NCBI GenBank assembly: GCA_963785725.1
Contig: CAWAWS010000029.1
Span: forward strand, 1 to 64,000
Origin: an uncultured delta proteobacterium
GTDB taxonomy: Bacteria; Myxococcota_A; Polyangia; Palsa-1104
DNA length: 64,000 nucleotides
Direction of reading: 5' to 3'
Shown here: in pieces, positions 27,043 to 64,000 of the stretch
Layout: every line of letters begins with the position of its first letter
How positions within the stretch are numbered: the first letter of the stretch is position 1
Position numbers and translations under genes: made by a program
The notes under the pieces: model-generated
Told to the model about the DNA's origin: nothing
Database searches by the model: none
The model's input: only the letters and a program-made list of their open reading frames with translations

Positions 27043-27069
27043 TCAACTTCACGGGCATCGGGCCGATGC
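27043..27069 (+). promoter_or_regulatory. Sigma28 (FliA) promoter of motAB-1
   Basis: TCAA-N15-GCCGATGC, ending 9 nt before the ATG. Confidence 0.7.
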
Positions 27070-27078
27070 ATTGTTGGC

Positions 27079-27936
27079 ATGTTCTCCGTCATCGGAATCG
27101 TCGTCGTTTTCGGCGCAGTCATCGGCGGCTTCATGCTGTCCGGCGGCCCGCTGCCCGTTCTCATTCAACCGAACGAGCTCATCGTCATCGGCGGCGCCGC
27201 GCTCGGCACGCTGATCATCGGCGCGCCTGGAAAGATGCGCAGCCGGCTGCTCGTCGCGCTCAAGAAGTCGTTCTCGGGCTCGCTGCCGACGAAAGCCGAT
27301 TACCTCGAGCTCTTGAAGATGCAGTTCGAGGTCATGGCCTTCATTCGTAAGAACGGCGCCATCGCGCTCGAGAGTCACTTGGCCGAGATCGAGAAGAGCG
27401 ACATCTTCAAGAAGTATCCGACGTTCCTCAAGAACCATCACGCGCTCGATTTCTATCGCGATGCGCTGCGCCAAGTCGTCAACGGCGTGTCGGTCGACGA
27501 TCTCTCGCAGCTGCTCGACGCGGAAATGGACGTGCACCACGAAGAAGCGCACTTGCCGATCGGCCTCATCAAGACGACGGGCGACGCGCTGCCGGGCCTC
27601 GGCATCGTCGCGGCCGTGCTCGGCATCGTCATCACGATGGGTCACCTCGACGGCGGCGCCGAGGAGATCGGTCACCACGTGGCGGCGGCGCTCGTCGGCA
27701 CGTTCCTCGGCATCCTCATGTGCTACGGGCTCTTGCAGCCGCTGGCGACCAACTTGGAAATGCAGGGCACGGGCGAGACGAAGTATCTCGTGTGCTTGAA
27801 AGAGGGCTTGCTCGCGTCGATGCGCGGCTCGTCGCCGATGTTCGCCGTCGAGTTCGCGCGCAAAGCGCTCTTCTCGGATGAGCGGCCGACTTCGGACGAG
27901 ACCGAAGCGGCGTGCAAGTCACTCAAGGGTGGCTAA
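27079..27936 (+). CDS. motA: Flagellar stator protein MotA (enteric-type)
   Basis: QPNELIVIGGAALG, IRKNGAIALE (R90/E98 equivalents), DALPGLGIVAAVLG, AAALVGTFLGI. Confidence 0.95.
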   Translation: MFSVIGIVVVFGAVIGGFMLSGGPLPVLIQPNELIVIGGAALGTLIIGAPGKMRSRLLVALKKSFSGSLPTKADYLELLKMQFEVMAFIRKNGAIALESHLAEIEKSDIFKKYPTFLKNHHALDFYRDALRQVVNGVSVDDLSQLLDAEMDVHHEEAHLPIGLIKTTGDALPGLGIVAAVLGIVITMGHLDGGAEEIGHHVAAALVGTFLGILMCYGLLQPLATNLEMQGTGETKYLVCLKEGLLASMRGSSPMFAVEFARKALFSDERPTSDETEAACKSLKGG

Positions 27937-29387
27937 TGGCCGCGGCCGAGGAAAAGCCGAAGCTCCGCATCATCGTCAAGAAGAAGGGTGGTCACGGCCA
28001 TCACGGCGGCGCGTGGAAGGTCGCGTACGCTGACTTCGTCACGGCGATGATGGCGCTGTTCATGGTGCTTTGGCTGCTCTCGGTCGCCGATCCCAAGACC
28101 AAGAAAGACATCGCGCGCTATTTCCGCGATCCCGGCTTCTTGCAGGGCGGCTCGGCCATGATCGTGCCCGGCGACGACGGCGGGCAGAGCGGCAAGCCCG
28201 CGGTCATGCAGTCGGCGCCGTCGCCGGAAGCGCAGGCCAAGCGGGCGGCGGAAGCGGAAGAGGCGACGCTGCAAAAAGAGGCGAAGGCGCTCAAGGCGGA
28301 GCTCGATCGCGCGGCGTCGGAGTCGACGGAGATGGCCGACTTGCGCAAGCAGGTCATCGTGACGGTGGCGCCCGAAGGGTTGCAGATTCAGCTGGTCGAT
28401 AAAGACGGCGATCACGATTTGCTGTTCAATTTGGCGTCGGCGGAGCTGAAGCCGGCGTTGGTGGCGCTGCTCAAGCACATCGCGGGGACGCTGGCGAAGA
28501 TCGATAATCCGCTGGTCATCGGCGGGCATACGGATGCGCGGGCGTTCGTGCATGGCGCGGGCAAGACGAACTGGGATCTGTCGTACGAGCGGGCGAGCGC
28601 GGCGCGGAAGATCCTCGAGGTCGGGCCGCTCGTGGGGCGCGTGCATCGGGTGACGGCGTATGGCAGCTCCGAGCCGTTCAATATGGAGAATCCGAACGCG
28701 GCGGAGAATCGGCGGTTGACGCTGGTGGCGCTGCGGAAGTTCAAGGTCGTGGCGCCGTCGGAGCAGGCGACGGCGGACAAGGCGAGCGCCGACGACCGGC
28801 TGGGGGCGGCGGGCAAGGTGGGGATGGCAGCGACGGCAGCGCCGGCAGTGCCTGAGAAGGCGCAGGGCGAGAAGGGCGCGGCTGACAAAGGCGCGGCCGA
28901 CAAAGGCGCGAACGACAAGGGCGCGAACGACAAGGGCGCGGCCGACAAAGGCGCGGCCGACAAAGGTGCGATCGAGAAAGGCGCGGCCGACAAAGGCGCG
29001 GTCGACAAAGGCGCGGCCGACAAAGGCGCGATCGAGAAAGGCGCGGCCGACAAAGGCGCGGTCGACAAAGCTGCGGTCGACAAAGGTGCGGCTGAGAAGG
29101 GCGCGGCCGACAAAGGCGCGGTCGACAAAGGCGCGGTCGACAAAGGCGCGGCCGACAAAGGCGCGATCGAGAAAGGCGCGGCCGACAAAGGCGCGGTCGA
29201 CAAAGCTGCGGTCGACAAAGGCGCGGCTGAGAAGGGCGCGGCTGACAAAGGCGCGAAGGCGACGGCGGAGAAGCCGCCGCTGCAGATTACGGCCGAGAAA
29301 GTCGCGGCGGCGCGGGCGGCTGCCGATAAAGTCGTGACCGCCAGGGCTGCCGATAAAGTCGTGACCGCCAAGACTGCCGAGAGATAG
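27936..29387 (+). CDS. motB: Flagellar stator protein MotB with a long C-terminal repeat tail
   Basis: GGAWKVAYADFVTAMMALF; OmpA-like GHTD...NWDLSYERA...NRR. Confidence 0.93.
   Translation: MAAAEEKPKLRIIVKKKGGHGHHGGAWKVAYADFVTAMMALFMVLWLLSVADPKTKKDIARYFRDPGFLQGGSAMIVPGDDGGQSGKPAVMQSAPSPEAQAKRAAEAEEATLQKEAKALKAELDRAASESTEMADLRKQVIVTVAPEGLQIQLVDKDGDHDLLFNLASAELKPALVALLKHIAGTLAKIDNPLVIGGHTDARAFVHGAGKTNWDLSYERASAARKILEVGPLVGRVHRVTAYGSSEPFNMENPNAAENRRLTLVALRKFKVVAPSEQATADKASADDRLGAAGKVGMAATAAPAVPEKAQGEKGAADKGAADKGANDKGANDKGAADKGAADKGAIEKGAADKGAVDKGAADKGAIEKGAADKGAVDKAAVDKGAAEKGAADKGAVDKGAVDKGAADKGAIEKGAADKGAVDKAAVDKGAAEKGAADKGAKATAEKPPLQITAEKVAAARAAADKVVTARAADKVVTAKTAER
28866..29255 (+). repeat. 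26 x 15-bp coding repeat (xDKGA/xEKGA) in motB
   Basis: GCCGACAAAGGCGCG-type units, in frame, with higher-order blocks. Confidence 0.95.
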
Positions 29388-29849
29388 GCGAGGCTTAGCT
29401 GTTGGCGGCTGCGACTTAGCGGTTGCCTGCATGGCGAGGCGGCACGGGCGCCCGGTGGGCGCGTGCCGGCTCGCTCCGTCGGAGTCGGCCATCGTGGAGT
29501 CGGGCAGGCCGATTCGCGGTTTATCGCGGGCGCATGCGCTCGGCACCCACGCGCGCCGCCAAGAGCACGCAAAAGCAACTCCGCGCGATCAAGCACGCTC
29601 GGTGTTCCAACATCGAGCCTGGTGTGCGTGTTCGGCGCAGCAGTGCGCGCCAAGCCGAGCCTTCGGCGCGCGTGGCCTACGCCTTTCGTGCACGGCGATC
29701 GGCGCGCGTAACATCGCGGGCGGCGTGACGTATTCGGCGGACGCGGCCTTCCGTCGCCGGGCGCCGCCGGGTTTGTCGGCGCGCGTCATCGCGGTCGGCG
29801 GCTGACCTCGCCGCGCCCGCGATTCCCCAGCAAACGCGGCGGAATGCCC

Positions 29850-29876
29850 TCAAGTTCGGTGGAACGCCGTCGATAC
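29850..29876 (+). promoter_or_regulatory. Sigma28 (FliA) promoter of motAB-2/fliL
   Basis: TCAA-N15-GTCGATAC, ending 8 nt before the GTG start. Confidence 0.7.
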
Positions 29877-29884: not shown

Positions 29885-30694
29885 GTGCGCTTCGATCTTT
29901 CATCGCTGATTGGGCTGCTGGTTGCCGGCTGCGCCATCGTGCTCGGGCTGAAGCTCGAGGGCGGGCACCTGTCGTCGATCGCGCAGCCGACAGCGGCGCT
30001 CGTCGTGCTCGGCGGGACGCTCGGCGCCATCGTCACGCAGTTTCCGGTGATGCAGCTGCAGCGGCTGCTCGTCGACCTGCGCCGCATCTTTCGGCCGGCG
30101 CCGTCGAACGAGACGCTGCTCGGCATCATGATGAAGCTCGCCAACAAGGCGCGCCGCGACAGCATCATCGCGCTCGACCGCGATCTGCAGCTGCTCGACG
30201 ACGCTTTTCTGCGCCGCGGGCTCGAGCTGGCCGTCGACGGCGTCGATATTCGCGTCATTCGCGAGACGCTGGAGCGCGAGCTCGATCGCGTCGACGAGCT
30301 CAACGAGCAGTCGGCCAAGGTGCTGGAGTCGGCGGGCGGTTATGCGCCGACGGTCGGCATTCTCGGCGCCGTGCTCGGCCTCATTCACGTCATGGAGCGG
30401 CTGTCCGAGCCGTCGCACCTCGGCGCCGGCATCGCCGTCGCGTTCGTCTCGACCGTGTACGGCGTCGGCTTCGCCAACCTCGTGCTCTTACCGCTCGCCG
30501 GTCGTTTGAAGGCGCGCGCGCGCCAAGAGTCGCTGCGGCTCGAATTGGCGCTCGAAGGCGTCATCGCCATCGCCGAAAAAGAGAGCCCGCGCGCGCTCGA
30601 GCGCCGCCTCGCCGTTTACGTCGACGAACGCCGCAACGGCGCCGATCGCGCGCACGCCAAACAGGCCGTCGAGCGACTGCGGAGCGCGGCGTGA
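29885..30694 (+). CDS. motA: Second stator A subunit (MotC/PomA-like)
   Basis: QPTAALVVLGGTLGA, ESAGGYAPTVGILGAVLGLIHVM, GIAVAFVSTVYGVGFAN. Confidence 0.92.
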   Translation: MRFDLSSLIGLLVAGCAIVLGLKLEGGHLSSIAQPTAALVVLGGTLGAIVTQFPVMQLQRLLVDLRRIFRPAPSNETLLGIMMKLANKARRDSIIALDRDLQLLDDAFLRRGLELAVDGVDIRVIRETLERELDRVDELNEQSAKVLESAGGYAPTVGILGAVLGLIHVMERLSEPSHLGAGIAVAFVSTVYGVGFANLVLLPLAGRLKARARQESLRLELALEGVIAIAEKESPRALERRLAVYVDERRNGADRAHAKQAVERLRSAA

Positions 30695-31425
30695 GCCGGC
30701 GGCGTCGCGAGCCGGAGCCGGCCCATCATGACCGCTGGCTCGTCTCTTACGCCGATCTGATTACGCTGCTCTTCGCCTTCTTTACGGTGCTGTACGCGAT
30801 CTCGACCGTCGATAAGACGAAGGCGCAGCATGCGGCCGAGTCGATGGCTGCCGCCTTGCGCACGGCGCCGACGCCGTCGCCGCCGCAAGCGCCGATCGTC
30901 GCGCCGCCGGCGGTGCTCGCGGCCGAGGCGCCGCCGCCGGTCGCCGTCGTCAATCCGCTGATTCCGCTCGCCAACGAGCTCGCCGAGCTGGCGAAGTCGC
31001 CGGCGCTCAACGGTCGCGTGCAGGTCTCGCTCACGCGGCGCGGCGTCGTCGTCAGCTTGGCCGAGGCCGGCTTCTTCGAGGTCGGCCGCGCCGAGGTGCG
31101 CACCGACGCGCTGCCGGCGCTCGACGAGCTGGCCGGCTCGTTGCGGCATCACGATGACGCTCAGAATCTGCAGCTGACGGTCGAAGGCCATACTGACGAT
31201 CGGCCGATCCATGGTCGTTATCGTTCGAACTGGGAGCTGTCGACGGCGCGGGCGACGGCGGTCGTGGCGCGGCTCGTCGAGCGTCATCACTACGCGCCCG
31301 ATCGTTTGGCAGCGTCGGGTTATGGCGAGTGGCGACCGATGGCACCCAACGACACCGTCGAGGGACGGGCGAAAAATCGACGCGTAGACGTGCTCGTGCG
31401 GCTCGCGGATGGAAGCGAGCCATGA
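30691..31425 (+). CDS. motB: Second stator B subunit (MotD/PomB-like)
   Basis: HDRWLVSYADLITLLFAFF; EGHTDDRP...SNWELSTARA...KNRRVD. Confidence 0.92.
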   Translation: MSRRRREPEPAHHDRWLVSYADLITLLFAFFTVLYAISTVDKTKAQHAAESMAAALRTAPTPSPPQAPIVAPPAVLAAEAPPPVAVVNPLIPLANELAELAKSPALNGRVQVSLTRRGVVVSLAEAGFFEVGRAEVRTDALPALDELAGSLRHHDDAQNLQLTVEGHTDDRPIHGRYRSNWELSTARATAVVARLVERHHYAPDRLAASGYGEWRPMAPNDTVEGRAKNRRVDVLVRLADGSEP

Positions 31426-31444
31426 AAGAAAAAGGGGATTGGCG

Positions 31445-31975
31445 ATGAGTAGCGCTCCGAAAGAAGAAGCGGCGGAGAAGCCGGCCGGCGGCGGCGGTGG
31501 TCCGTTGCCGTTGGTGGCGGTGGTGTTGGGCCTGTTGAACCTGGGTGGCCTCGGCTTCGTGGCCATGACGACGATGAAAGTGGCCAAGCAGGCGGCGGCG
31601 CTGGCCGAAGGCGTCGACAAGAAAGACGGCGGCAAAGACGAAAAGAAGGAAGCGGCGGTCGAGTTGCCGTCGGTGGCGTTCGATCCGTTCGTCGTCAACT
31701 TGAACGAGCCGGGCTCGAATCGTTATTTGAAGGCGAGCTTGGAAGTGGAAGTCGCCGACGTGGCCGCGGCCGAGGATCTGAAGCGCTGCAAGCGCGCCGT
31801 GCGCGACGATCTGTTGCGCTATCTGTCGAGCCTCGCCGTCGCCGACACGCAAGGCGAGGACGCGAAGACGAAGATGGAGACGGCGATGATGGCGCGCATC
31901 GACAAGCAGCTCGGCGGCAAAGAGGGCGAAAAGAAAGTGCACCGCCTGTTCTTCAACGACTTCATGGTTCAGTAG
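31445..31975 (+). CDS. fliL: Flagellar basal body-associated protein FliL
   Basis: N-terminal TM; FDPFVVNL...RYLK, VRD, LFFNDFMVQ. Confidence 0.9.
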   Translation: MSSAPKEEAAEKPAGGGGGPLPLVAVVLGLLNLGGLGFVAMTTMKVAKQAAALAEGVDKKDGGKDEKKEAAVELPSVAFDPFVVNLNEPGSNRYLKASLEVEVADVAAAEDLKRCKRAVRDDLLRYLSSLAVADTQGEDAKTKMETAMMARIDKQLGGKEGEKKVHRLFFNDFMVQ

Positions 31976-32023: not shown

Positions 32024-32331
32024 TCGAGCGTGACGCTCCGGCCAGATGCTCCGCTCGGACTGCGCATGGCGCGTCGAATTCAGCCAGGTCGCGCTCCTCG
32101 CGGCCGGTGATTGATCATAAATCGTCAGTGTCGTTGCGAGTGCTCGAAATACCTACGTATCTCGTCGCGCCCTGATCGCTTTACGCGGGCTTAACAATCG
32201 TCCGCGAGCGGTGTCTGAGTATGCATGCGACAAGTGTTGCGCGTACCGCGCCTCGTCGACGAACGCGGGCGGAACTCGGTTGACGCTCGCCTCGTCTCGC
32301 TAGTGCACAGGCACGGGCGCGGGGGATTTTG

Positions 32332-34377
32332 ATGCAGCGAATCGCTCTTTCATTATCAATCGGTATCTTCATGTGCAGTGCAATCACCGGCTGTACGAGT
32401 AAAAACAAGTCGGCGATTGTGGCGGTCGACGGCGGCGCGCCCGACTCGGGGATTCCGCCATTTCAGATCGATGCGCCCGCCGTTTACGTCGCCAAAGTAA
32501 AAAACATATTGGTCGGATTGCCGCCGACGGATGACGAAATCAAGCAGGTGACGGCCGACCCCGCGGCGCTCGGCGGGCTCGTCGATCAATGGATGACGCT
32601 GCCGCAATATCAGCAAAAGATGCTGGTGTTCTTCCAGCTCGCGTTTCAACAGACGCAAATTACGACGGCCGATTTCACCGATATGATTCCGCCGCTCGGG
32701 CTCGGCGTCGGTCCGCAGATTCCGTTGTTGCTGCAGAACCTGCGCGAAAGCTTTGCGCGTACGGTGTTGGCGTTCGTCGCCGATGGTCGTCCGATCACCG
32801 ACGCCTTCTCGACGCGGCAGTTGATGATGACGCCGGCGTTGATGGAGCTCTATGCGTTCCTCGATACGCGTCATGTCGACGACAACGCTGTCGTCACCGA
32901 TGATTTCGTGACGGCGAATCCAACGCTGAATATCACGCTCGAAGCGTCGGCTGGGCCGATCGCGATGGCCGATTCGGTCAATCCGCAGAGCCCCAATTAT
33001 ATGCATTGGTATAATCCCGCCGTCGGTACGTTGACGGGATATGCCGATCAAACCTGCAACGTCGATCCGATCGTCGCCAAAGTAGACTCGTATTTCGTGC
33101 ATAACCTGCTTTATGGCGGGGTGTTCACGCATAAAGGGCCGGCCAAGACGTCGTGTCCGACGCAATACACGGCCAATGGGCAGTTGGCGGCGAGCGACTT
33201 TACGACGTGGACGATGGTGACGATGCGGGCGCCGAGCGCGGGCGAGGCGACGACCGTATTCTACGATATGCCGGCGCTGCGCGCGGCGACCGAGCTCGTG
33301 CTGAAGACGCCGCGGCTCGGCTTCTTCGCGACGCCGGCGTTCGCCGCCAATTGGCCGACGAACACCAGCAATCAAATGCGCGTCACGTTGAATCAGACGC
33401 TCATCGTCAGCACGGGCGCAGCCATCGATGGCACCGATCCGACGAGCCCGGCGACGACGCCGGGCTTGGACGCGGCGCACGCGGCGCCGGGAACGGCCTG
33501 TTTCGGCTGCCATCAGCTGCTCGATCCGACGCGCTCGATCCTGGCGAGCACCTGGTCTTGGTATTATTATCCGCAAACCGAGACGTCTTATATTCAACAG
33601 CCGGGGCTATTCGCGTTTCAAGGCGTCATTCAGCCGGTCACGACGATCGATGACTTCGCCAATATCCTCGTCATGCACCCGCTCGTTCCCGCGGCGTGGG
33701 CGCAGAAGCTTTGTTATTGGGTGAACTCGGCGCCGTGCGCCGTCGACGACCCGGAGTTCTTGCGCATCGTCACGGCGTTTCAGCAGTCGAATCTGTCGTG
33801 GAACGTGCTCGTGCATCAATTGCTGTCGTCGCCGATTACGACGAATACCGCGCAAACGAAGACGACGGCGACGAATGGCGAAATAATCGCGGTTTCGCGG
33901 CGCGATCATTTGTGCGCGGCGCTCAATAATCGTTTGGGATTGGTCGACGTGTGCGGCCTCGACGCGGTCAGCGGCAAAGGCACGAAGACGACGGTCGTCT
34001 CGCAGATCGTCAGTGGTTTGCCGTCGGATGGATATGGTCGCGGCTCGCCGATTCCGGTATTGCCCAATCAGCCGACGCTGTTTTATCGCGCGGGACTGGA
34101 GAATATCTGCGAGGCGGTGGCGGCGATGGTCATCGACGCGCCGGCGAGCGGCGCCGGCAAACAATATTCGAGCGCGCAGCCCGACGCCGCCATCGCCGAC
34201 TTCGTGGCGACCGTGATGGCGCTCGAGCCGTCGGACGCGCGCTCGGCCGGCGCGACCTCGCTCTTGCAGGCGCATTATGCGGCCGCATTGAAGACCGGCG
34301 TCTCGGCCACGAGCGCGCTCGAGTCGACGTTCGTGACGGCGTGCTTGGCGCCGACGTCGATCGGGATTGGAATGTGA
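32332..34377 (+). CDS. Large lipoprotein with one c-type heme motif (DUF1588/DUF1585-like family by context)
   Basis: Lipobox ITGC; CFGCHQLLDP; WAQKLCYW; immediately followed by a Tat protein. Confidence 0.7.
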   Translation: MQRIALSLSIGIFMCSAITGCTSKNKSAIVAVDGGAPDSGIPPFQIDAPAVYVAKVKNILVGLPPTDDEIKQVTADPAALGGLVDQWMTLPQYQQKMLVFFQLAFQQTQITTADFTDMIPPLGLGVGPQIPLLLQNLRESFARTVLAFVADGRPITDAFSTRQLMMTPALMELYAFLDTRHVDDNAVVTDDFVTANPTLNITLEASAGPIAMADSVNPQSPNYMHWYNPAVGTLTGYADQTCNVDPIVAKVDSYFVHNLLYGGVFTHKGPAKTSCPTQYTANGQLAASDFTTWTMVTMRAPSAGEATTVFYDMPALRAATELVLKTPRLGFFATPAFAANWPTNTSNQMRVTLNQTLIVSTGAAIDGTDPTSPATTPGLDAAHAAPGTACFGCHQLLDPTRSILASTWSWYYYPQTETSYIQQPGLFAFQGVIQPVTTIDDFANILVMHPLVPAAWAQKLCYWVNSAPCAVDDPEFLRIVTAFQQSNLSWNVLVHQLLSSPITTNTAQTKTTATNGEIIAVSRRDHLCAALNNRLGLVDVCGLDAVSGKGTKTTVVSQIVSGLPSDGYGRGSPIPVLPNQPTLFYRAGLENICEAVAAMVIDAPASGAGKQYSSAQPDAAIADFVATVMALEPSDARSAGATSLLQAHYAAALKTGVSATSALESTFVTACLAPTSIGIGM

Positions 34378-34382
34378 GGAGA

Positions 34383-35705
34383 ATGCCGATGAACATGACT
34401 CGCCGGCAGGCGCTGATGTCTGCGTTGTTTGGCGGCGGATACCTCGGTCTACGCGCGCTGGCGACCGGTCTGCCCATTTCGTTTCTGATGAATCCGCGCC
34501 GCGCATTGGCCGCCATGCCGGCGCCGCTGTGTGCCGATAAGACCAAGGCGCAGTACATCATCATGGCGACTTCGGGACAGGGCGATCCCATCAACGCCAA
34601 TGTGCCCGGCTGCTATCTCGATCCGATGATTACCCACAGCGCGGATCCGGCGATGGCGGCGACGCCGCTGTCGCTCAGTGGTCAGTCGTATACGGCGGCG
34701 CAGCCGTGGTCGATGTTGCCGCAGACCGTGCTCGATCGAACGACGTTCTTTCATTTGATGACCGATACGCCGGTGCATCCGAAAGAGCCCGACGTATTGA
34801 AGCTCATGGGGACGATTAGTAATTCGGAGATGCTGCCGTCGGCGCTGGCGAAGCAGCTCGCGCCCTGCTTCTCGACGGTGCAATCGCAGCCCATCACCGT
34901 CGGCGCGACGACGCCGAGCGAAGGCTTGGTTTACGACGGGCAAGCGCTGCCGATCATTCCGCCGCTGTCGTTGAAGGCGACGCTGACGAATCCGACCGGG
35001 CCATTGACGCAGTTGCAGCCCTTACGCGATCAAACGCTCAGTCAATTGAGCGATCTATATAAGAATGGCGCCAGCGCGGCGCAAAAGGCCTATCTCGATG
35101 CGCTGATCACGTCGCAGACGCAAGTGCGAAACATTCGTCAGGATCTGTTGAGCGCGTTGTCCTCGATCAAGGACAATAGCGTCACGTCGCAGATTACCGC
35201 GGCGGTGACGCTGATTCAAATGAACGTGACGCCGGTCGTCGCCATTCATATTCCGTTCGGCGGCGATAATCATCACGACACGGCGCTGCAGACGGAAGCG
35301 ACGCAAACGGTGAGCGGCGTCGGCTATATTGGCGCGCTGATGACGGCGTTGGCGAGCGCGGGACTGCAGGATCAAGTGACGTTCGTGTCGCTCAACGTGT
35401 TCGGTCGCACGCTCGGGCCGGCGAATACGGATGGACGGCAGCATAATCCGAATCATCAGGTCTCGATCGCGATTGGTAAGCCGTTTCGTGGCGGTGTCAT
35501 CGGCGGGTTGGCGCCGCTCGCCGGCGACTACGGCGCGTTGCCGATCGATTCGAAGAGCGGTTTGGGTAGCGCCAGCGGCGATATTCAGGCCGTCGATAGC
35601 TTGGCGTCGTTCGGTAAGACGGTCATGGCGGCCGTCGGCGTAGACGCCGCGACGATTGGGTCGACGATTACGTCGGGTCAAGTCATCAATCCGGCGCTCG
35701 CTTAA
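34383..35705 (+). CDS. Tat-exported DUF1501/DUF1552-like protein
   Basis: TRRQAL twin-arginine signal; GGDNH; NVFGRT...DGRQH...FRGGVIGG. Confidence 0.7.
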   Translation: MPMNMTRRQALMSALFGGGYLGLRALATGLPISFLMNPRRALAAMPAPLCADKTKAQYIIMATSGQGDPINANVPGCYLDPMITHSADPAMAATPLSLSGQSYTAAQPWSMLPQTVLDRTTFFHLMTDTPVHPKEPDVLKLMGTISNSEMLPSALAKQLAPCFSTVQSQPITVGATTPSEGLVYDGQALPIIPPLSLKATLTNPTGPLTQLQPLRDQTLSQLSDLYKNGASAAQKAYLDALITSQTQVRNIRQDLLSALSSIKDNSVTSQITAAVTLIQMNVTPVVAIHIPFGGDNHHDTALQTEATQTVSGVGYIGALMTALASAGLQDQVTFVSLNVFGRTLGPANTDGRQHNPNHQVSIAIGKPFRGGVIGGLAPLAGDYGALPIDSKSGLGSASGDIQAVDSLASFGKTVMAAVGVDAATIGSTITSGQVINPALA

Positions 35706-35726
35706 TTGGAGATGGTCAACTAACCA

Positions 35727-36909: not shown

Positions 36910-36917
36910 GATGCTTC

Positions 36918-40643: not shown

Positions 40644-40650
40644 CAGAGCC

Positions 40651-52406: not shown

Positions 52407-52434
52407 TGGGGCACCTTCTCGGTGCCCCGTGAGC
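52401..52434 (-). promoter_or_regulatory. Hairpin occluding the predicted flhA RBS/GTG start
   Basis: mRNA GCUCAC-GGGGCACC-GAGAA-GGUGCCCC-A-GUGAGC. Confidence 0.5.
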
Positions 52435-52494
52435 AGGCCGATCGATCCGCTGGCCCTGCGTGCCGGACGCTCACATTCGCTCGCTGACGCTCAC

Positions 52495-55207: not shown

Positions 55208-56454
55208 GACTTCACGCGCCCCACGGCGCGGCGCAGCGCATCGCCCCATTCGGTCGGGCCGTTGCTGCCGTCGTTGTTGGCGTGGCTGGCGTTGGCATCG
55301 GCGCGCAGCTTCAAGAGGCCCGCGATCGCCGAGTTCGACGACGTCGAGACCGTCGACACCGTCGGAATCGAGGTCGCCGTCGACGTCAAATGCACGACGG
55401 CCGAGTCGCTACGCGACGTCTCCACATGGTGTATCGGGTGCTGCGAGGTCGGCTCGCGGAACGACGCTTCGGCCCGCGCCGGCGCTTCGTCGATGGGGAA
55501 ATCGAGGTCTTCGTCGTTGCCGTCGGCTTCGTGGTCGCGGCCGTTGTCGGCGCCGACCGCGGCCACGGCCGCTTCCAAGTTGGCGACGACGCGCGTCGTC
55601 TGGTCGTTCACCGCGAGCAAGATGCGCTTGCCGTCGGCCTCGACGATCATGAGCTTGGCCTTGCCGCCCAGCGACTGCGACGCCAGCACCTTCAACAGCG
55701 GCTCCTGAACCTTGCCGCCGCCGCGACGCTTCTGCGCGAACAGGAGCGCCGGCACGCCGATGATCAGCGTCAATAGCACCCACCACGCCGTACGCGGGTT
55801 GGCCTTGTGGTCGTCGAGCAGCGAATCGGTCGACACCTGCTCCTTGGCGACGGGAATGCCCAGCTGCTCGGCCGGCACGATCGCGATCGCCGGCGTCTTG
55901 GCTTCGCTCTTCGCGTCGATCTTCGCGTCCGGCTTGGCTTCGAGCTTCGCTTCCGGTTTGGCTTCGCTCTTCGCGCTCGGCGTCTTGGCGACGGGCGCGG
56001 CAATCGCCGCCGCCTCCGCCGCCGGCGCGACCGGCGTCGTCGCGACCGGCGCCGCAGCGACGGCAGCCGCGGTCGCGACCGGCGCCGAGCCGCTCGGCTG
56101 GCGCGGAATGATCAGCTTCAAGCTGCCGTTGGCATCCTGCGCGATGGTCGCCGCCGCGATGCGCTCGGTCGTGTGCTTCGAGTGATGCAGCCGGACGATC
56201 AACCGCGCGTGGGCGCCGCCGATGAGGTCGATGTGCTTGACCGTGGCGTCGTCGGCGTCGACGTGCGCGCTCGCGTCCGTCGCCGCCAGCGGAATCTCCA
56301 GCATGTCGCCGTGCGCGACGACGGCGCCGGCGGCCTTGACGCCCGCGGCGCTGATGACGACGCGGTGGTCGCCCGAGCCGTCGAAGTCGACCGGCGCCGA
56401 CAGCGCGACCGTCGCCGTCAACAGCACCGTCGCGACCAAGAACGCGCGAATCAC
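55204..56454 (-). CDS. fliO: FliO/FliZ-like protein with an extended periplasmic N-terminal domain
   Basis: Signal peptide, beta-domain, Ala/Pro linker, TM, then LKVLASQSLGGKAKLMIVEADGKRILLAV; between fliN and fliP. Confidence 0.8.
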   Translation of the reverse strand: MIRAFLVATVLLTATVALSAPVDFDGSGDHRVVISAAGVKAAGAVVAHGDMLEIPLAATDASAHVDADDATVKHIDLIGGAHARLIVRLHHSKHTTERIAAATIAQDANGSLKLIIPRQPSGSAPVATAAAVAAAPVATTPVAPAAEAAAIAAPVAKTPSAKSEAKPEAKLEAKPDAKIDAKSEAKTPAIAIVPAEQLGIPVAKEQVSTDSLLDDHKANPRTAWWVLLTLIIGVPALLFAQKRRGGGKVQEPLLKVLASQSLGGKAKLMIVEADGKRILLAVNDQTTRVVANLEAAVAAVGADNGRDHEADGNDEDLDFPIDEAPARAEASFREPTSQHPIHHVETSRSDSAVVHLTSTATSIPTVSTVSTSSNSAIAGLLKLRADANASHANNDGSNGPTEWGDALRRAVGRVKS

Positions 56455-56738
56455 GAGTTGCGCCCCGACGGCTCGACGATCTCGACGATGCGGACGCCGT
56501 AACGATCGCCGACGGCCACCGCTTCACCGCGCGCCACCAGCCGATCGTTGATGCGCACGTCCAGCTTGTCGCCGGTGAGCGTCGTCAGCGGAATGATCGA
56601 GCCCGGCCCGAGCCGTCCCGCGATCTCGCGCAGCGTCAGCATGACGCGACCGAGCTCGACGGAGAGCTCGAGCGGCACGTCACCGAGCATGGCTTCGAAC
56701 GACGGATCGGCAGCGGCCTTGTTCACCGGGTCACTCAT
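56451..56738 (-). CDS. fliN: C-ring protein FliN
   Basis: DVPLELSVELGR, RGEAVAVGDRYGVRIVEI. Confidence 0.92.
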   Translation of the reverse strand: MSDPVNKAAADPSFEAMLGDVPLELSVELGRVMLTLREIAGRLGPGSIIPLTTLTGDKLDVRINDRLVARGEAVAVGDRYGVRIVEIVEPSGRNS

Positions 56739-57665
56739 TTACTCGTCCTCCACATCGACAATTTTCACGGCCAAGACGCCGCGGCTCACGATCACGGTGG
56801 CGTGACCGACCAGGCGTCCGGCGACATAAATCGGGAGCGGCTCGTCGACGGCGCGATCGAGCATCACCAGCGCGCCCGGCTGCAGCGACGCCACCTCCGA
56901 CATCGACAGCGTCGCCGAGCCGAGGTCGGCGCGCAGCTCGATCGGCACTTCGCCGAGCACGGCGCGGATGGTCGCCGGGCTCGCCGGCACGACCTTGAGC
57001 GCCGGCGGCGGCATGACCAGCGTCTCCGGCCGCGCCCACAAGCGCACGCGGCCCGTCGTCCAGCCGGAGATGTCGAGCGTCAGCTCGACGATGGAATCGG
57101 TCTCGCCGAGCGCGCGGCGCCAGGCCTCGCCGTCGGCGGAGACGGTGCGCACGTCGCAGGCCTGCTCGTCGCGCCACGCCTCGGTCAGCGCCAGCAAGAT
57201 CGACTCACCGACGGGCGCGAAGATGCGCAAGGAGGCCTTGGACGGCGCGCGATCGGTGCCCGGATCGTTCGAGCCCAACATCTTGGCGCCCAAGCCTTCG
57301 ACCATCGCGCCCGACACCGACACCAGCGCTTGGCCGGCGCGGCCGCCGATCTCGATGGCGTTGGCCCAGGCGATGGCGAGCTGCTCTTTGAACAGCGACG
57401 AATCGGCCAAGTCGGCCGCCTTGGCTTCGATCTCGAGCTTGACGTTGCACTTGCGGCCGAGGCGCGTCTTCATGAGCTGCGCCCAGCGCTGCCCGAGCTT
57501 CAGCGCGTCGGGGCGCGCGCGGTCGGCCGAGCGATCGTCGGCGATGAGCGCGATCGGCGTCGCTTCGCCGGGCGGGCCCGACGTCTGCGCGCTGCCGGCT
57601 TTGTCGCCGCCAATCGCGCTGCGAATCGCTGCCACTTCTGCCGGGTCGAGAACTGCGAGATCCAT
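56739..57665 (-). CDS. fliM: Divergent C-ring protein FliM
   Basis: C-terminal SpoA domain VPIELRADLGSATLSMSEVASLQPG; directly upstream of fliN. Confidence 0.8.
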   Translation of the reverse strand: MDLAVLDPAEVAAIRSAIGGDKAGSAQTSGPPGEATPIALIADDRSADRARPDALKLGQRWAQLMKTRLGRKCNVKLEIEAKAADLADSSLFKEQLAIAWANAIEIGGRAGQALVSVSGAMVEGLGAKMLGSNDPGTDRAPSKASLRIFAPVGESILLALTEAWRDEQACDVRTVSADGEAWRRALGETDSIVELTLDISGWTTGRVRLWARPETLVMPPPALKVVPASPATIRAVLGEVPIELRADLGSATLSMSEVASLQPGALVMLDRAVDEPLPIYVAGRLVGHATVIVSRGVLAVKIVDVEDE

Positions 57666-57683: not shown

Positions 57684-57700
57684 TGCAAAGCCGAGGCCGA
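57684..57700 (-). promoter_or_regulatory. Putative sigma54 promoter of the fliM operon
   Basis: TCGGCCTCGGCTTTGCA (GG-N10-GC with TTTGCA). Confidence 0.5.
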
Positions 57701-57849: not shown

Positions 57850-59137
57850 CTACGTCTGCTTCAGGTTGTCCACTTCCTGCAGCATCTGATCGGCCGTCTG
57901 CACCGTCTTCGAGTTGGCCGAGAAGGCGCGCTGATACGCGATCAAGGTCACCAGCTCCGACGAGAGATCGACGTTCGACTGCTCGAGCGCGCCCGACGTC
58001 GTCGAGCCGCGGCCACCGACACCGGCGGCGTCGACGAGCGCCTGTCCCGACGTCTGCGACTGCGAGAACAGCTGGTCGCCTTGGCGCTGTAAGTTGTCCT
58101 GCGACGCGAAGGTCGCCAAGGCCAAGCGCGCGATCGAGCGCGACTCGCCGTTGGAGAACGTGCCGGTGACCGTGCCGTCGCTGCCGATGGTCACGTTGGA
58201 CAAGCTGCCGGCGGAGTAGCCGTCTTGGTTGACGGCGTTGACGGTCGAGGCGCTGGCGTACTGCGTCGTGCCCGCCAAGCCCGTGCCGCCGGCGGCGATC
58301 GGATCACCCATGTTGAACGTAATCGCTTGGTTGGGCGTCGCGTTCAAAAAATTGGCGCTCGACGTCAATGCATTGACGCTCTGTAACGAGCCGTCGGTAT
58401 TGAACGTCATGTTGCCGGACGCGATCTGCGTCGGCGTTCCCGGCGTGCCGCCGGTCAAGTCGCCGCCGTCGACGAGCGCGTGGTAATCCCACTGCCCGTT
58501 GCCGTTGTCGACGTAGTAGACGTCGACGCGGTGCGCGTCGCCGAGCGAGTCGTAGACCTCGGTCGAGGTCGAGTAGTTCGACGTCGCCGCGGGGTTCAGC
58601 GGATCGAACGGCGCCGTCGGCGTCGTCGAGGTCGAGTCGAGGTTGACGCCCATCGTCACTTCGGTCGTGGCGTTGGGCGGGCTGGCGCCGCCGATCGTCG
58701 AGATCGCCCGGCGTCGTCGACATCTTGCCGGTCGGGTCGATCGTGTAGCCCTGAACGTTCATGCCCTCTTCGTTGACGAGCGTGCCGGCGTCGTTGAGCG
58801 AGAACTGGCCGTCGCGCGTGTAGTAGCTGCCCTGTTGGCCGTCGTAGCTGCCGTTGACGACGAAGAAGCCGTTGCCGCTGATGGCGACGTCGAGGTTACG
58901 ACCGGTCGTCTCGAGCGAGCCCTGGCCGAACTGCGTCTGCGTGCCCGACATGCGCACGCCGTCGCCGACGTTCTGGCCGGCGAGCGTGGCGCCGCCGATG
59001 ACGTTGGAGAACTGTGCCTCCTCGTCTTTGTAGCCGACGGTGGACGCGTTGGAGATGTCATCGCCGACGACGCTGATGGCGTCACCGTGTGCTTCGAGGC
59101 CGCTGGCGCCGGTGTAGAGCGAAGTGAAGATCGACAT
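57850..59137 (-). CDS. flgE: Hook protein FlgE, one +1 frameshift at ~58700
   Basis: N-half ISNASTVGYK, YTRDGQF; C-half VYDSLG, LEQSNVDLSSELV, QRAFSAN. The span is 1288 nt = 429 codons + 1. Confidence 0.93.
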
Positions 59138-59150: not shown

Positions 59151-59840
59151 CTAGTTTCCGATGGACAAGATGTCGGCCGGCGACACGCTCGACCCACCGA
59201 CGTTGAAGCTGGCATTGCCCGCGTTGAAGGTCAGCGAGCTGATGACGCCCTTGATTTCGGGCGTGGCATTGATGGTGCTCGAACCTTGGCTGGCCGTGAC
59301 TTGGACGGTGTAGCTGCCGGCCGGCAAGTTGCCGCCGCCCGCTGCCACCCAGTTGACGGCGTTGTCACCCGCGGCCATCGGTCCGACTTGCAGCGTCTTG
59401 ACCTTGTTGCCCGACGAATCGAGCACGTCGACCTCGACCTTGCTGGCCGCGCCGGAGAGGTTCAGCTGCAGCGACGGCGCCGTGATGCCGTCGCTGGTCA
59501 GCGTCGTCGCCTTGGCCGTGACCGTCTTGCCGACCAGCGAGGCCATGCTGGCGTTGGTGCTCGCCGACTGCGCCGCCGTCAAGCTGGTGAGCTCGGTGTT
59601 CGTCGTCGTGGCCGCTTGCAGCTGCGAGATCTGCGCGAGCTGCGTCACGAACTGCGTCGAATCGGTGGGCGCCGACGGATCTTGGTTCTTCAGCTGCGCC
59701 ACGAGGAGCTGCATGAACTCCGACTGCAGATCCGACGCCGACGGCGCACCCGACGACGAGCTCGACGACGATGTGCTCGTCGACGGCGTGCCGTTGATGC
59801 TGGCGAGCGTGCTCGATGAAATGGTTGAAGTCGTGCTCAT
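59151..59840 (-). CDS. flgD: Hook cap protein FlgD
   Basis: FMQLLVAQLKNQDPSAP...FVTQLAQ, LVGKTV. Confidence 0.94.
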   Translation of the reverse strand: MSTTSTISSSTLASINGTPSTSTSSSSSSSGAPSASDLQSEFMQLLVAQLKNQDPSAPTDSTQFVTQLAQISQLQAATTTNTELTSLTAAQSASTNASMASLVGKTVTAKATTLTSDGITAPSLQLNLSGAASKVEVDVLDSSGNKVKTLQVGPMAAGDNAVNWVAAGGGNLPAGSYTVQVTASQGSSTINATPEIKGVISSLTFNAGNASFNVGGSSVSPADILSIGN

Positions 59841-59850
59841 GGTCTCCTCG

Positions 59851-61359
59851 TTACGCCATGACTCGCCGCGCGGTGGGCGCGGTCGTCGTCGTCGTCGTTG
59901 CGGATTCGGCGTCGCTGCTGTCGCGTCGCGTCGTCGTCGCCTGATCGTTCGGCAGCGGGGTCGGCTGCTCGCGCGCGGCGGAATCGCCGGACGAGCCCGT
60001 GTTCAGCTCGGCCAACGTCAAGCCGTGACCGGCGAGCGCGTCGCGCAAGCTGCCGGCGTTGTCGGCGAGTGACGTCGCCATCGCATCGGACGCCGCCGCC
60101 GCTTGCACGCGGACGTGGTGCGCGCTGGCGGCGATGGTGAGCGCGATGCGATCGGCGCCTTCACCGACGGTAATGGACGCGCGCGCGCTGGTCGACTGCG
60201 GCAACACGGGCGGCTCGACCGGCGCGGCGGCGCGCACCGAATCGGCTTTCGTCGTCGCGAAAGGACGCGCGTAGGTCGGCGCGCCGGTAAAGGTCGCGAA
60301 GTTTTCGCTCGCCGTCGTTTTGCCGGCGGATTCGCCCGCTTTCGGCTCGCTCGCGACCCGCGCCGTTTCGCGCGCGGCCGTGCTGGCGACGGCCGCCGAC
60401 GTCGCCGTCGTCGTCGTCGCCGCGACCGCGCGCGGATCGGCGCTCGCCGCCGGCGCCGGCGCGTTCGCCGGCAAGGCGGCCGCTGCAGTCGTCGTCACCG
60501 TGGCGTTGGCGTCGGCCGCCGTCGTCGCGACGTTGGCCGGCGGCGCTTGACGCTCACCGCTCGTCGCCGACTCGGCGTCGCCGTCGTCTTTCGCGCTCGC
60601 GTCGTCGATCTGGGTAGCCGCGGCGTGCGTGTGGGTCGCATGCGCGGCTTTGCCACTCGTCGCCGTCGCGTTCACGCTCGGCTTGCTGGCCGTCGCGCTC
60701 GGTTTGCTGGCCGTCGCGACCGGTTTGCCGGCGACGCGCGCGACGCCGATGGCCGTCGTGCTCTCGGCGGTCAGCGCGCTCGCGGCCGCGGCCGTGGTCG
60801 CGCTCGTCGTCACGCTCGCCGCCACATTCAATAGGGCCGTGGTGGCGCCTGTCGTCGTCGTGGTTGCGTTCGTGGCAGCCGCGTTCGCCGTCGGCGTGCC
60901 AGTCGCCGTAGCGTTGGCAGCGAGCGCGCTCGTGGCTGCGGTCGTCGTCGTCGCGGTCGTCGTCGTCGCGGTCGTCGTCGAGGGCGTGTTCGTCAGGCCG
61001 AGCGTCGCCGCGTCGTCCGCCGCCGGCGCAGCTTGAGCGCCGTCAGCCGTCGCCGGCGCGCCAGCTCCGTCGGCGGTCGCCGTGCCGTCAACATCGACGC
61101 CCGCGTCAACCACCCCATGATCGCCGCCGCCATCGGCAGCACGAAGCGCCTGCGCCGCCCGTGTGGCCGCGATGTCGTCAACTTTGTCATCCTCTCCGCC
61201 CACCTTGGAATCGGTCGCGGCGGCCGGCTGCGGCGGCGGCGCCGGCTGCGTCCGCAGCGCGCTCAATGCCGCCGCGAACTGGCCGCTCTCGAGCGGCGTC
61301 TGCGTCGTCTCGCGCTCGGCGCGCGCATGCGTCGTATTATTGAATCGACCGATCTTCAT
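59851..61359 (-). CDS. fliK: Hook-length control protein FliK (502 aa)
   Basis: Between fliJ and flgD; long Ala/Thr low-complexity region; C-domain ending SLRDALAGHGL. Confidence 0.75.
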   Translation of the reverse strand: MKIGRFNNTTHARAERETTQTPLESGQFAAALSALRTQPAPPPQPAAATDSKVGGEDDKVDDIAATRAAQALRAADGGGDHGVVDAGVDVDGTATADGAGAPATADGAQAAPAADDAATLGLTNTPSTTTATTTTATTTTAATSALAANATATGTPTANAAATNATTTTTGATTALLNVAASVTTSATTAAAASALTAESTTAIGVARVAGKPVATASKPSATASKPSVNATATSGKAAHATHTHAAATQIDDASAKDDGDAESATSGERQAPPANVATTAADANATVTTTAAAALPANAPAPAASADPRAVAATTTTATSAAVASTAARETARVASEPKAGESAGKTTASENFATFTGAPTYARPFATTKADSVRAAAPVEPPVLPQSTSARASITVGEGADRIALTIAASAHHVRVQAAAASDAMATSLADNAGSLRDALAGHGLTLAELNTGSSGDSAAREQPTPLPNDQATTTRRDSSDAESATTTTTTAPTARRVMA

Positions 61360-61778
61360 CGCGACCTCGTCGACGAAAGATCGTCCGCCAGCGACTGCTC
61401 GGCCGCGTGCCGCTTGGCGGCGATCTCGGCGCGCGTCTGATCGATCTGCTCGTCGCAGCTGCGCACGGCGCGTTCGCGCTCCTGCAGCACCTTCTGCGCT
61501 TTGCGCGTGCGATCTTGTGCGGCCGCTTGCATCTTGATGGCGTCTAACTGCAGAACCCGTGCCCGCTCGATCTCCTCGACAAACCCCAGCCAATCCGCGG
61601 CGCGCTTCGCCTGAATGGGCGGATGGTCGAGCCGAGCGTCAATTTCGCGGACGATCTGCTGCGTCTTCTGCTGCGCGTCGTGCAGCGCGCGGCCGGCTTC
61701 ACCCGCTTGCGCGGCGGCCACATCGCGAATACGCGTGCGCGCCGCCTTCAGCCGCTTCAACGTCTGCAGCTTACTCAC
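61356..61778 (-). CDS. fliJ: Export protein FliJ
   Basis: 140-aa coiled coil after fliI, ending EQSLADDL. Confidence 0.75.
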   Translation of the reverse strand: MSKLQTLKRLKAARTRIRDVAAAQAGEAGRALHDAQQKTQQIVREIDARLDHPPIQAKRAADWLGFVEEIERARVLQLDAIKMQAAAQDRTRKAQKVLQERERAVRSCDEQIDQTRAEIAAKRHAAEQSLADDLSSTRSR

Positions 61779-63082
61779 GCGGCATTTCCGATGGCCTTGC
61801 CGAGCGCCTGCATCGTCGAGCTGTAGTCGCTGCGTTCGTGGCTGGGTTGGCGCGCCCAGCCGTCAAATCTGTCACCGAACGCCAACGCCTCGTCGTAGGG
61901 CGCGTGCGTGCCCGGCGTGTAGGCGCCGAGGCTGCGCAGCTCCTCCACTTCCCGACGCGTGGCGATCAACCGCCGCGCTTTGCCGATGACCTGCTGCGCA
62001 TCGGGCGTCGTCACCTTCTGCAGCACGCGCGACGTCGACGACAAGAGATCGACCGCCGGAAAGTGCCCGCGCTCGGCCAGCGAACGCGAGAGCACGATGT
62101 GGCCGTCGAGCAGCGAGCGCGCCGAGTCGGCGACCGGATCGGACAGCTCGTCACCTTCGACGAGCACGGTGTAGATGCCGGTGATCGAGCCGCCGCCGTT
62201 GAGCGGCGCCACGCGCTCGAGCAGCTTGGGCATGATCGCGAACACGCTCGGCGGATAGCCCTTCGTCGCCGGCAGCTCGCCCGCGGCCAGGCCGATCTCA
62301 CGCAGCGCCATGCAGTAACGCGTCAGCGAGTCGATCACCAACAGCACGTGCTTGCCGCGGTCGCGAAAGTATTCGGCGATGGCGGTGGCGACTTGGGCGC
62401 CGCGCGCGCGCTCGAGCGGCGAGCGATCCGACGTCGCCGCGACGACGATGCTCTTCGACATGCCGTTCGAGACCAAGAGGTCGTGGACTTCGCAGCCGCG
62501 CTCGCCGATCAAGCCGACCACGGTGATGTCGGCGTTCGACTGATCCAAGATCTGCCGCATGAGCACGGTCTTGCCGACGCCGGCGCCGGCGAAGATGCCG
62601 ACGCGCTGGCCGCGACCGAGCGTCAACAGGGCGTCGATGGCGCGCACGCCCGTGTCCAGGCGCTGGTCGACGCTGCGGCGCGCGCCCAGCGGCGGGCCTT
62701 CGGCGTCGACGGGCACGCGATCTTTGACGTTCGGCGCCGGCTTGCCGTCGAGCGGCCGGCCGAAGGGATCGATGATGCGGCCGAGCAGCGCCTCGCCGGC
62801 GACCGTCTCGGCCAGCGTGCCTTTGCGGCGCACGCGCGCGCCCACTTCCAAGCCGCGCAAGTCGGAGAACGGCTGCACCAGCGCGCGATCGCCGCGAAAG
62901 CCGGTGACGGCGCCCGCGACTTTGCTGCGGTTGCAGTTGATCTCGACGAGATCGCCGACGCGCGCGCCGTCGAGAAAGGCTTCGATCTGCGTGGCCGAGG
63001 CTTCGGCGATGCGTCCGTAGGCGACCGGCTTGACGGCGTCGCGCAACAGCGGCGTGAGCACGCGCGAGTCGGCGTCGTTCAT
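61775..63082 (-). CDS. fliI: Export ATPase FliI
   Basis: GQRVGIFAGAGVGKT, GERGCEV, DSLTRY, GYPPSVF, LDGHIVLSR. Confidence 0.96.
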   Translation of the reverse strand: MNDADSRVLTPLLRDAVKPVAYGRIAEASATQIEAFLDGARVGDLVEINCNRSKVAGAVTGFRGDRALVQPFSDLRGLEVGARVRRKGTLAETVAGEALLGRIIDPFGRPLDGKPAPNVKDRVPVDAEGPPLGARRSVDQRLDTGVRAIDALLTLGRGQRVGIFAGAGVGKTVLMRQILDQSNADITVVGLIGERGCEVHDLLVSNGMSKSIVVAATSDRSPLERARGAQVATAIAEYFRDRGKHVLLVIDSLTRYCMALREIGLAAGELPATKGYPPSVFAIMPKLLERVAPLNGGGSITGIYTVLVEGDELSDPVADSARSLLDGHIVLSRSLAERGHFPAVDLLSSTSRVLQKVTTPDAQQVIGKARRLIATRREVEELRSLGAYTPGTHAPYDEALAFGDRFDGWARQPSHERSDYSSTMQALGKAIGNAA

Positions 63083-63768
63083 GCGACCTTCCGCTGACCG
63101 GCGCCGGCGCCCGACGTGCCGAGCGCGTCGGCGAGCGCGCCGCGCACCGCCTCCAGCCGCTCGTCGAGCGAGCTGTCGACGACGCGGCGCGAATTCTCGA
63201 CGACGCAGCCGGCCGGGCCGACCGACTCGTCGGGCACGAAGCGCACGGCGTCGGCCAATTCCGGCTTGAGCTCGACGACGACGTCAATCTCGGCCGCCGT
63301 CATGCGCACTTGCGGCAGCTCTTCGCCACCGAGCGCCGCGATGCCGGCTTCCACATGCTCCAAAATCAGCGACGGATCGGTCTGCGCTTCACGGCCGATC
63401 ACCTCGCGCGCGATCAACAGCACCAAGTCGAGCACGCGCTCGGGCGACGCCGGCCGCGCCACCGACTGCGCCGCCAGCTTGGCGATGCCCTCGGCGTACC
63501 GCGTCTGCATCGACTTGAGCTTCGCGGCCTCCGCTTCCAGCTGCCGCATCATGGCGTCGTGCTGCGCCTGCGGATCGATCTGCTGCTGCTGCGCGTTGTC
63601 GTTGGCCGCGTGGCCATGCGGCATGTGCGTGGGCGCGAACGGGTCGCGCACGGCCGGTGTCGCGCTCGCTTCCAGCCACGCCGGCGCCTGCGCGCGTTCG
63701 GCTACAGCCAAGCGCGGAATCAGCGCGGTCGCCTGACGATCGGTGACGATGCGGCCTTTGCGGATCAT
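63079..63768 (-). CDS. fliH: Export protein FliH
   Basis: IAREVIGRE, PDESVGPAGCVVEN...VDSSLDERL; between fliG and fliI. Confidence 0.85.
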   Translation of the reverse strand: MIRKGRIVTDRQATALIPRLAVAERAQAPAWLEASATPAVRDPFAPTHMPHGHAANDNAQQQQIDPQAQHDAMMRQLEAEAAKLKSMQTRYAEGIAKLAAQSVARPASPERVLDLVLLIAREVIGREAQTDPSLILEHVEAGIAALGGEELPQVRMTAAEIDVVVELKPELADAVRFVPDESVGPAGCVVENSRRVVDSSLDERLEAVRGALADALGTSGAGAGQRKVA

Positions 63769-64000
63769 TTAGACCAACTTCTCCCCGCCGCCCGACGACG
63801 GCAGCGCGAGCTTGCCCTGCTGCGACATCTTCATCGCCGTATCGACCACGTCGCGCTGCGCCTTCTCGACGTCCGAGAGCTTGGTCGGCGGCATCATCGA
63901 CAGGTCCTCGCGCATCGACTCGGCCGCGCGCGCCGACACCGCCGAGAGGAACTTGTTGCGCAGCTCCTCCGACGCCGTCTTGAGCGCGAGCAGCATCGTC
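63769..64000 (-). CDS. fliG: Rotor protein FliG, C-terminal part (continues beyond the window)
   Basis: LALKTAS, SARAAESMREDL, KLSDVEKAQ. Confidence 0.92.
   Translation of the reverse strand, partial: TMLLALKTASEELRNKFLSAVSARAAESMREDLSMMPPTKLSDVEKAQRDVVDTAMKMSQQGKLALPSSGGGEKLV

Follow-up and report, generated by a model that had tools for sequence, protein, structure and literature searches.

We analysed a 64,000-nucleotide stretch of DNA from an uncultured delta proteobacterium of soil (the window; the first 64 kb of contig C29), the right part of which is occupied by a large flagellar gene cluster. As judged from sequence, the host is a member of the Myxococcota, class Polyangia, its flagellar gene set is complete when the adjoining part of the contig is included, and the cluster is native to the genome. 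The system most likely encodes a working, chemotactically steered flagellum, which would be conditionally expressed beside gliding and type IV pili. An earlier note, made from the letters of the window, had proposed a swimming myxobacterial lineage; the Polyangia host and the complete gene set agreed with this, but the lineage was not a special one, since flagellar genes occurred in about 37-40% of the sampled Polyangia and Myxococcota genomes.

The host assembly comprised 8.89 Mb in 47 contigs and was 88% complete with 1.5% contamination. RpoB trees placed the host beside a congener (96% identity) and then with its own family and order, and a genome of the same class (G057) and named Polyangiaceae made up a clade of three rows with a support value of 100. 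Archangium fell inside the same Myxococcota clade (98-99), separate from Desulfobacterota and Bdellovibrionota. This placement was a single-gene one, the final tree being built on columns 1-940 without the garbled C-terminal third and with one long-branch row removed. A homolog of the host FliM, 94% identical, is deposited as 'Polyangia bacterium', in agreement with the myxobacterial host previously suspected. The genes formerly named in the left flank were also recovered by NCBIfam and Pfam scans, namely a PEGA kinase, a TPR protein, an extracytoplasmic function (ECF) sigma factor with a TPR protein, citrate synthase and a multiply frameshifted EF-G.

Gene content of the flagellar cluster

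Between motA (27079) and the window edge, NCBIfam and Pfam scans of the open reading frames (ORFs) identified 38 that are flagellar, close to the 37 or so counted before; two of the 38 are putative chaperones only. The genes and the regulatory sites proposed for them are as follows.

27042..27067, forward strand: sigma28-type promoter of motAB
27079..27936, forward strand: motA (TIGR03818 type, over cut-off; family scans)
27936..29387, forward strand: motB, with a long Lys/Ala-rich C-terminal tail (family scans)
29849..29874, forward strand: sigma28-type promoter of motCD-fliL
29885..31425, forward strand: second stator, motC (PRK09109 over cut-off) and motD
31409..31975, forward strand: fliL (family scans)
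32329..36257, forward strand: insert of three non-flagellar genes (weak matches to DUF1549 and DUF1501), lying between fliL and the filament chaperones
36347..37292, reverse strand: fliS, a FliS-like ORF (36631-36909) and an ORF at the FliT position (36347-36634)
36921-36946, reverse strand: sigma28-type site before the FliS/FliT-like ORFs
37310..38698, reverse strand: fliD, filament cap (family scans)
38846..39670, reverse strand: fliC, a single 274-aa flagellin, the only copy found in the genome
39736..39762, reverse strand: fliC promoter, with a variant -35 box and the -10 box as in flgM
39768..42656, reverse strand: flgM, flgN-like, flgK and flgL (family scans)
42681..42706, reverse strand: sigma28-type promoter of flgM
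42719..47558, reverse strand: flgF, flgG, flgA, flgH, flgI and flgJ (rod-binding and M23 peptidase)
47551..50284, reverse strand: flhF, flhG and fliA (sigma28)
50295..56454, reverse strand: export gate, fliO, fliP, fliQ, fliR, flhB and flhA
56451..57665, reverse strand: fliM (divergent sequence, FliM fold) and fliN
57684..57699, reverse strand: sigma54-type -24/-12 site before fliM
57850..59137, reverse strand: flgE, hook, with an extra base at 58699
59151..63768, reverse strand: fliH, fliI, fliJ-like, fliK and flgD (family scans)
63769..64000, reverse strand: 3' end of fliG, the rest reaching 64782 on C29 beyond the window
C29:64779-66344, beyond the window edge: fliF
C29:66360-66680, beyond the window edge: fliE
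C29:66683-67120, beyond the window edge: flgC
C29:67132-67515, beyond the window edge: flgB
C29:67539-67554, beyond the window: sigma54-type site before flgB
C29:67805-69256, beyond the window edge: sigma54 activator (REC-bearing enhancer-binding response regulator)
C29:69271-69286, beyond the window: sigma54-type site of the sigma54 activator itself
C29:70387, beyond the window: sigma28-type site before a PAS kinase
C29:140942-147780, beyond the window: sigma28-led operon cheA(2xCheW)-W-mcp-Y-B-R, ~75 kb from the cluster

The guess that fliF, fliE and flgBC lay beyond the right edge was borne out, as they follow directly after fliG on C29 together with the sigma54 activator (C29:64779-69256). 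The cluster thus holds the parts of a diderm flagellum: the flagellar-type export gate (FlhA, FlhB, FliPQR) with the FliHIJ ATPase (fliJ by position only), the MS ring, C ring, rod, hook and L/P rings (FliM by its fold, flgE whole after one base is removed), the filament, cap and junction proteins (FliC, FliD, FlgK, FlgL, FliS), and two stator pairs with the conserved MotB aspartate. The fliJ-like ORF and the ORF at 36347 had no family match in either scan and were named by position; the latter was 34-40% identical to its counterparts in two relatives (G008 and G019). FlhA scored 801 bits, above the flagellar cut-off of 772 and under the SctV cut-off, and its tree set it apart from SctV; FliP was also over its cut-off. 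Flagellin, FliA and flagellar FlhA were each found once in the host genome.

Catalytic motifs were intact, including the NTPase motifs of FlhF and FlhG, and both MotB-type subunits carried the conserved Asp and a Val residue. Val in MotB-type subunits marks proton stators. A borrowed stator was weighed, as a Binatia protein (65%) was the only organism-named homolog among the 120 MotA matches listed; the host MotA type was, however, present in 42 of 301 Polyangia genomes, 41 of which were flagellated. The MotB tail consisted of ~200 residues of Lys/Ala-rich repeats beyond the OmpA domain, and FliO (55204-56454) had a long N-terminal extension without family match, at a place where AMIN domains have been reported for FliO of Myxococcota (PMC12248157). 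A 124-aa ORF at 29431, without family or atlas support and without a match in the compared loci, is probably not a gene.

The host FliM was missed by the Pfam FliM model. A model made from a 37-sequence alignment matched flagellar C-ring FliM structures (best E 1.6e-14) as well as the FliM middle domains of other species, and this fold match ruled out a missing or truncated FliM. The N-terminal helix of the protein was conserved (consensus LDPAELEAIQxAI); we take this helix to be where phosphorylated CheY (CheY-P) binds.

A single frameshift was found in the cluster, in flgE, as had been described. When the extra base at 58699 was removed, flgE encoded a 428-aa protein with no stops, and an independent soil metagenome, run X1, included one contig without this base (depth 9.66 of 24.3). 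In the same assembly, EF-G (window 4691-7166; repeated frame changes) and rpoB (C6:185747-188653; 2 internal stops) were each broken by several frameshifts. Since the base is missing from the independent contig, and since these two genes are frameshifted too, a sequencing error almost certainly accounts for the broken flgE; with indel errors this frequent, other broken genes of the host genome need careful reading. Parts of the cluster were matched, with identities of about 92-99%, by contigs from three soil studies. Among 38 differences scored, a sample taken from the best-supported 40 of 1771 rows, 37 were in genes, with 27 synonymous and 10 mostly conservative non-synonymous changes.

Promoters and chemotaxis genes

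Four matches to a sigma28-type motif were found in the window against 0.57 expected, a number reached in none of 100 shuffles, and they precede motA, motC, flgM and the FliS/FliT-like ORFs. Genome-wide, the strict motif gave 13 matches at the canonical spacing and 0-5 at six other spacings; this pattern was fitted to sites of the host genome, so that the count is partly circular, and it missed the fliC promoter. The variant -35 box of the latter recurred in G008. The consistent sigma28 motif seen earlier was therefore upheld, and nine of the 13 strict sites were on five other contigs. A loose version of the pattern was discarded, its 156 genome matches being mostly noise. Other strict sites (C3:95127, C3:238282, C3:497863, C4:28936, C16:437747 and C17:119467) precede a methyltransferase, a REC-histidine kinase and several small proteins, and may belong to a FliA regulon; on contig C10 (L380:519-2999) a sigma28-type site was found before a small ORF resembling CheX on visual inspection, together with a response regulator and an HDOD-like protein.

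Sigma54-type sites were located before fliM, before flgB and at the activator gene, and the flgB site recurred in three of the five relatives with a flgB match. The chemotaxis operon on C29 was led by a sigma28-type site. Its CheA type was present in 37 of 301 genomes of the class, 35 of which had FlgI or flagellin, compared with a background of 121/301; only eight candidates were scored per genome in this survey, and the kin among these genomes are not independent.

From these motifs and from known systems, such as the hierarchies of Pseudomonas, Vibrio and Campylobacter, we infer a cascade running from sigma54 through the early operons and FliA/FlgM to the late genes. The flgB and fliM operons, which encode the basal body, export gate, FlhF/FlhG, FliA and the rings, would be switched on by the sigma54 activator whose gene heads the cluster. 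Completion of the hook would lead to export of FlgM and free FliA, which would then transcribe fliC, flgM, both stator operons, the neighbouring PAS kinase and the cheA-W-mcp-Y-B-R operon. CheY-P would finally act on FliM, through the N-terminal helix that is conserved in this divergent protein.

The presence of FlhF and FlhG with intact NTPase motifs, together with sigma54-type sites at early genes, is necessary for a polar system and not sufficient. FlhF/FlhG had been taken as an established mark of polar flagella, but they also pattern the peritrichous flagella of B. subtilis (PMC12327844). Polar placement of the host flagellum nevertheless seems rather probable.

The host also encodes candidate surface motility systems. 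GltG-, GltE- and GltC-like matches were found, all below curated cut-offs, its TolQ homologs resembled AglR on visual inspection, three PilT proteins, candidates for type IV pilus function, exceeded the cut-off, and about seven chemosensory loci were present in the genome. The retention of gliding and pili, the two stators with FliL, the few receptors and the sigma28 site preceding the PAS kinase/HD-domain locus beside the cluster would all suit a flagellum built mainly for surface sensing, attachment or wet-surface swarming and not for free swimming. We consider this improbable, given that the switch is complete, that a dedicated sigma28-linked Che operon tracks flagella across the class, and that swimming has been observed in Anaeromyxobacter (PMC2330069).

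Origin and distribution

Host FlgI grouped with two members of its family and one of its order (support 99; 117 rows), and host FlhA belonged to a clade of 27 rows (support 100; 66-row tree), all from Polyangia: the host, 25 genomes of the same class and a named Polyangiaceae. The trees of FlhA and FlgI, which the earlier note had proposed as a check, thus grouped both proteins with the host's own family. The codon distance between flagellar genes and flanks was 0.38-0.45, as compared with 0.51 between the two flanks, in line with the codon style already remarked upon, and the GC content of the cluster agreed with that of the flanks. The order activator-flgBC-fliEFGHIJK-flgDE-fliMNOPQR-flhBAFG-fliA-flgFGAHIJMNKL-fliCDS recurred, whole or in large blocks, across the compared families. 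In the family member G008 (C332) the cluster was permuted, with the fliM-to-fliS block ahead of the flgB-to-flgE block and fliL between motD and fliM.

The only compositionally foreign part was the 4-kb insert between fliL and the filament chaperones, which the earlier note did not mention. Its ORFs of 682, about 440 and 176 aa had a GC content at third codon positions of 0.77, compared with 0.88-0.91 elsewhere, and a codon use unlike that of the host, so that these three genes were probably acquired laterally.

A search for an empty site gave no clean deletion or insertion junction, the right-flank query matching none of five relatives; in one congener (G003) the glycosyltransferase and START-domain genes were still adjacent and were followed by unrelated genes. 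This lack of a syntenic empty site, and the absence of the cluster from congeners, would fit a chimeric contig, a binning mistake or DNA received recently from a different phylum. Such an origin is very unlikely, because the trees, GC content, codon use, gene order and the sigma28 sites on five other contigs all fit the host; the contamination estimate of 1.5% also speaks against it.

FlgI was detected in 9 of the 41 nearest genomes (host included), in 115/301 Polyangia genomes (88/219 of the high-quality ones) and in 120/301 genomes of the phylum. Flagellin was found in 118/301 Polyangia genomes, and both proteins in 112/301. These samples were evenly drawn species representatives, often incomplete, and do not amount to a census. 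A GltG-like gene was matched in 300 of the 301 Polyangia genomes, none over cut-off, indicating that flagella coexist with gliding markers and do not replace them.

Many family-level FlhA clades agreed with the RpoB tree, and a separate FlhA type was shared by family f12, genome G009 and Archangium. Both G009 and G005, from the host's own family, bore this other flagellar type, which grouped with f12 and Archangium. A lateral replacement of the cluster of the host's family from another Polyangia lineage (f10/f17/f18 type), which would concern origin only and is compatible with function, is consistent with these two genomes and with an FlhA clade (support 100) that unites f1/f2 with f10, f17, f18 and f31 and leaves out the sister family f3 (approximately unbiased (AU) test, p 4e-7). 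This possibility is doubtful: the nearest sequences come from the host's own family and the sister family f2, the recipient could be either f1/f2 or f3, and the codon use is ameliorated, so that any transfer would be old. The best reading is that the flagellar system was present in the ancestor of Polyangia and would have undergone many losses, with occasional exchange among Myxococcota lineages. The ancestral system put forward in the earlier note therefore stood as regards its age in the class and its conserved gene order, with the qualification that FlhA rejected strict vertical descent within the order.

Several observations weigh against a native, ancestral and working system. FlhA rejected the monophyly of the host's order (p-AU 4.3e-7), and all trees were single-gene 'quick' trees without bootstrap. 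The sigma54 motif was only modestly enriched (4 matches against 1.24 expected, with 7 of 200 shuffles reaching 4), only 5 of 20 relatives had an exactly spaced sigma28 site before the host CheA type (2 and 3 at neighbouring spacings), and only six chemoreceptor domains were found genome-wide. Only a single contig from a single run was without the extra base of flgE; the change is not listed for the three remaining runs. Finally, FlgI was found in none of the four congeners (53-99% complete) and flagellin in none of the three searched.

The absence from congeners would also fit a relic cluster, silent or decaying and about to be lost, as would the split flgE, the foreign insert inside the cluster and the case of Anaeromyxobacter strain 2CP-C, which rarely swims though it bears a cluster (PMC2330069). 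In metatranscriptome run X20, short cluster-like contigs at 88% likeness were strandless and possibly DNA, and gave no evidence of expression. A relic is nonetheless unlikely, since an independent contig is free of the extra base, essential genes show the same indel problem, synonymous differences outnumber non-synonymous ones 27 to 10, and promoters and catalytic motifs are intact.

Comparison with known systems

Anaeromyxobacter belongs to the class Myxococcia, unlike the host, which is a member of Polyangia. A. dehalogenans 2CP-C carries a 55.7-kb flagellar cluster with a Desulfuromonas-like order, interpreted as ancestral (Thomas et al. 2008, PMC2330069), and strain K was observed swimming (PMC2330069). 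The premise that cultured myxobacteria are non-flagellated was consequently wrong, although a 2018 review described myxobacteria as lacking flagella (PMC6164225). Like 2CP-C, the host unites over 30 flagellar genes in a single large cluster with a delta-proteobacterial gene order, and would likewise combine it with surface motility; for the 2CP-C cluster, an ancestral origin followed by loss from most myxobacteria was proposed (PMC2330069). In contrast, the host has flgA, flgJ, fliK and flgN/fliJ-like ORFs, which were reported missing in A. dehalogenans (PMC2330069; compared by description), and its che genes are outside the cluster, ~75 kb off, under a sigma28 site.

The sigma54 activator, FlhF/FlhG, FliA/FlgM and two stator sets are shared with the sigma54/sigma28 polar flagellates (PMC7064773), and sigma28 sites ahead of fliC and of one che cluster are shared with Geobacter (PMC2577667). 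Unlike in the polar flagellates, the host cluster is headed by a single REC-bearing activator with no co-transcribed kinase beside it, its FliM diverges too far to be recognised by the Pfam model, and it has a single minimal flagellin. The host cluster shares export-gate, ATPase and C-ring homologs with the Myxo non-flagellar type III secretion systems (T3SS; Abby and Rocha 2012, PMC3459982), in which FliO has also been found (PMC12248157). It is not one of these, which are described as lacking FlgBCDEK, FliEG, FlgH and MotAB (PMC3459982), all present in the host cluster. Elsewhere in the host genome, non-flagellar T3SS-like genes were scattered on two contigs (C7:204932-206707, C7:479779-481827, C6:212885-213852 and C6:326450-326698) and comprised SctV, SctN with SctL, a second FliO that, with SctR, directly follows an apparent rpoA-rplQ region, and an SctQ-like gene, an arrangement that contrasts with the clustered Myxo loci described for Cystobacterineae.

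Flagellar assembly has been listed for uncultured Myxococcota metagenome-assembled genomes (MAGs) (Murphy et al. 2021, bioRxiv 10.1101/2021.07.06.451402), and in a seamount study flagellins were highly expressed in pooled Bdellovibrionota and Myxococcota MAGs, with the source phylum unstated (PMC11937823); 'flagell' does not occur in two supplement files of the latter. In their accessible text, both papers mention flagella in passing, without anatomy, regulon, prevalence or phylogeny. Myxococcota are named among motile phyla, with no numbers, in 10.64898/2026.06.16.732483, and are not mentioned in the main text of a survey of flagellar loss (10.1101/2024.12.05.626484); the accessible parts of PMC11821767, PMC10576062 and PMC12288465 hold nothing on flagellated Polyangia. 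Our literature searches, which left subscription journals largely outside, gave no paper on flagellar prevalence or anatomy in Polyangia, and survey supplements may hold such data.

The single genome is unremarkable and the machine conventional; what deserves further attention is the pattern across the class and the chemotaxis operon linked to FliA. The host genome and the 112 of 301 Polyangia genomes with FlgI and flagellin extend the 2008 hypothesis of a flagellated ancestor, formulated for Anaeromyxobacter, to the other major class, and gliding markers persist in the flagellated genomes. About one third of Polyangia species could well have three motility systems and an undescribed swimming dispersal stage, governed by a sigma54-to-FliA cascade that would include a dedicated dual-CheW chemotaxis pathway; gliding would have been kept, whereas the flagellar clusters would have disappeared inside genera and been exchanged among lineages, and the non-flagellated textbook view would then reflect cultivation bias. 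Two matters can now be tested: the way in which one cell changes among its swimming, gliding and twitching modes, and a possible bias against swimmers when strains are isolated on solid baits.

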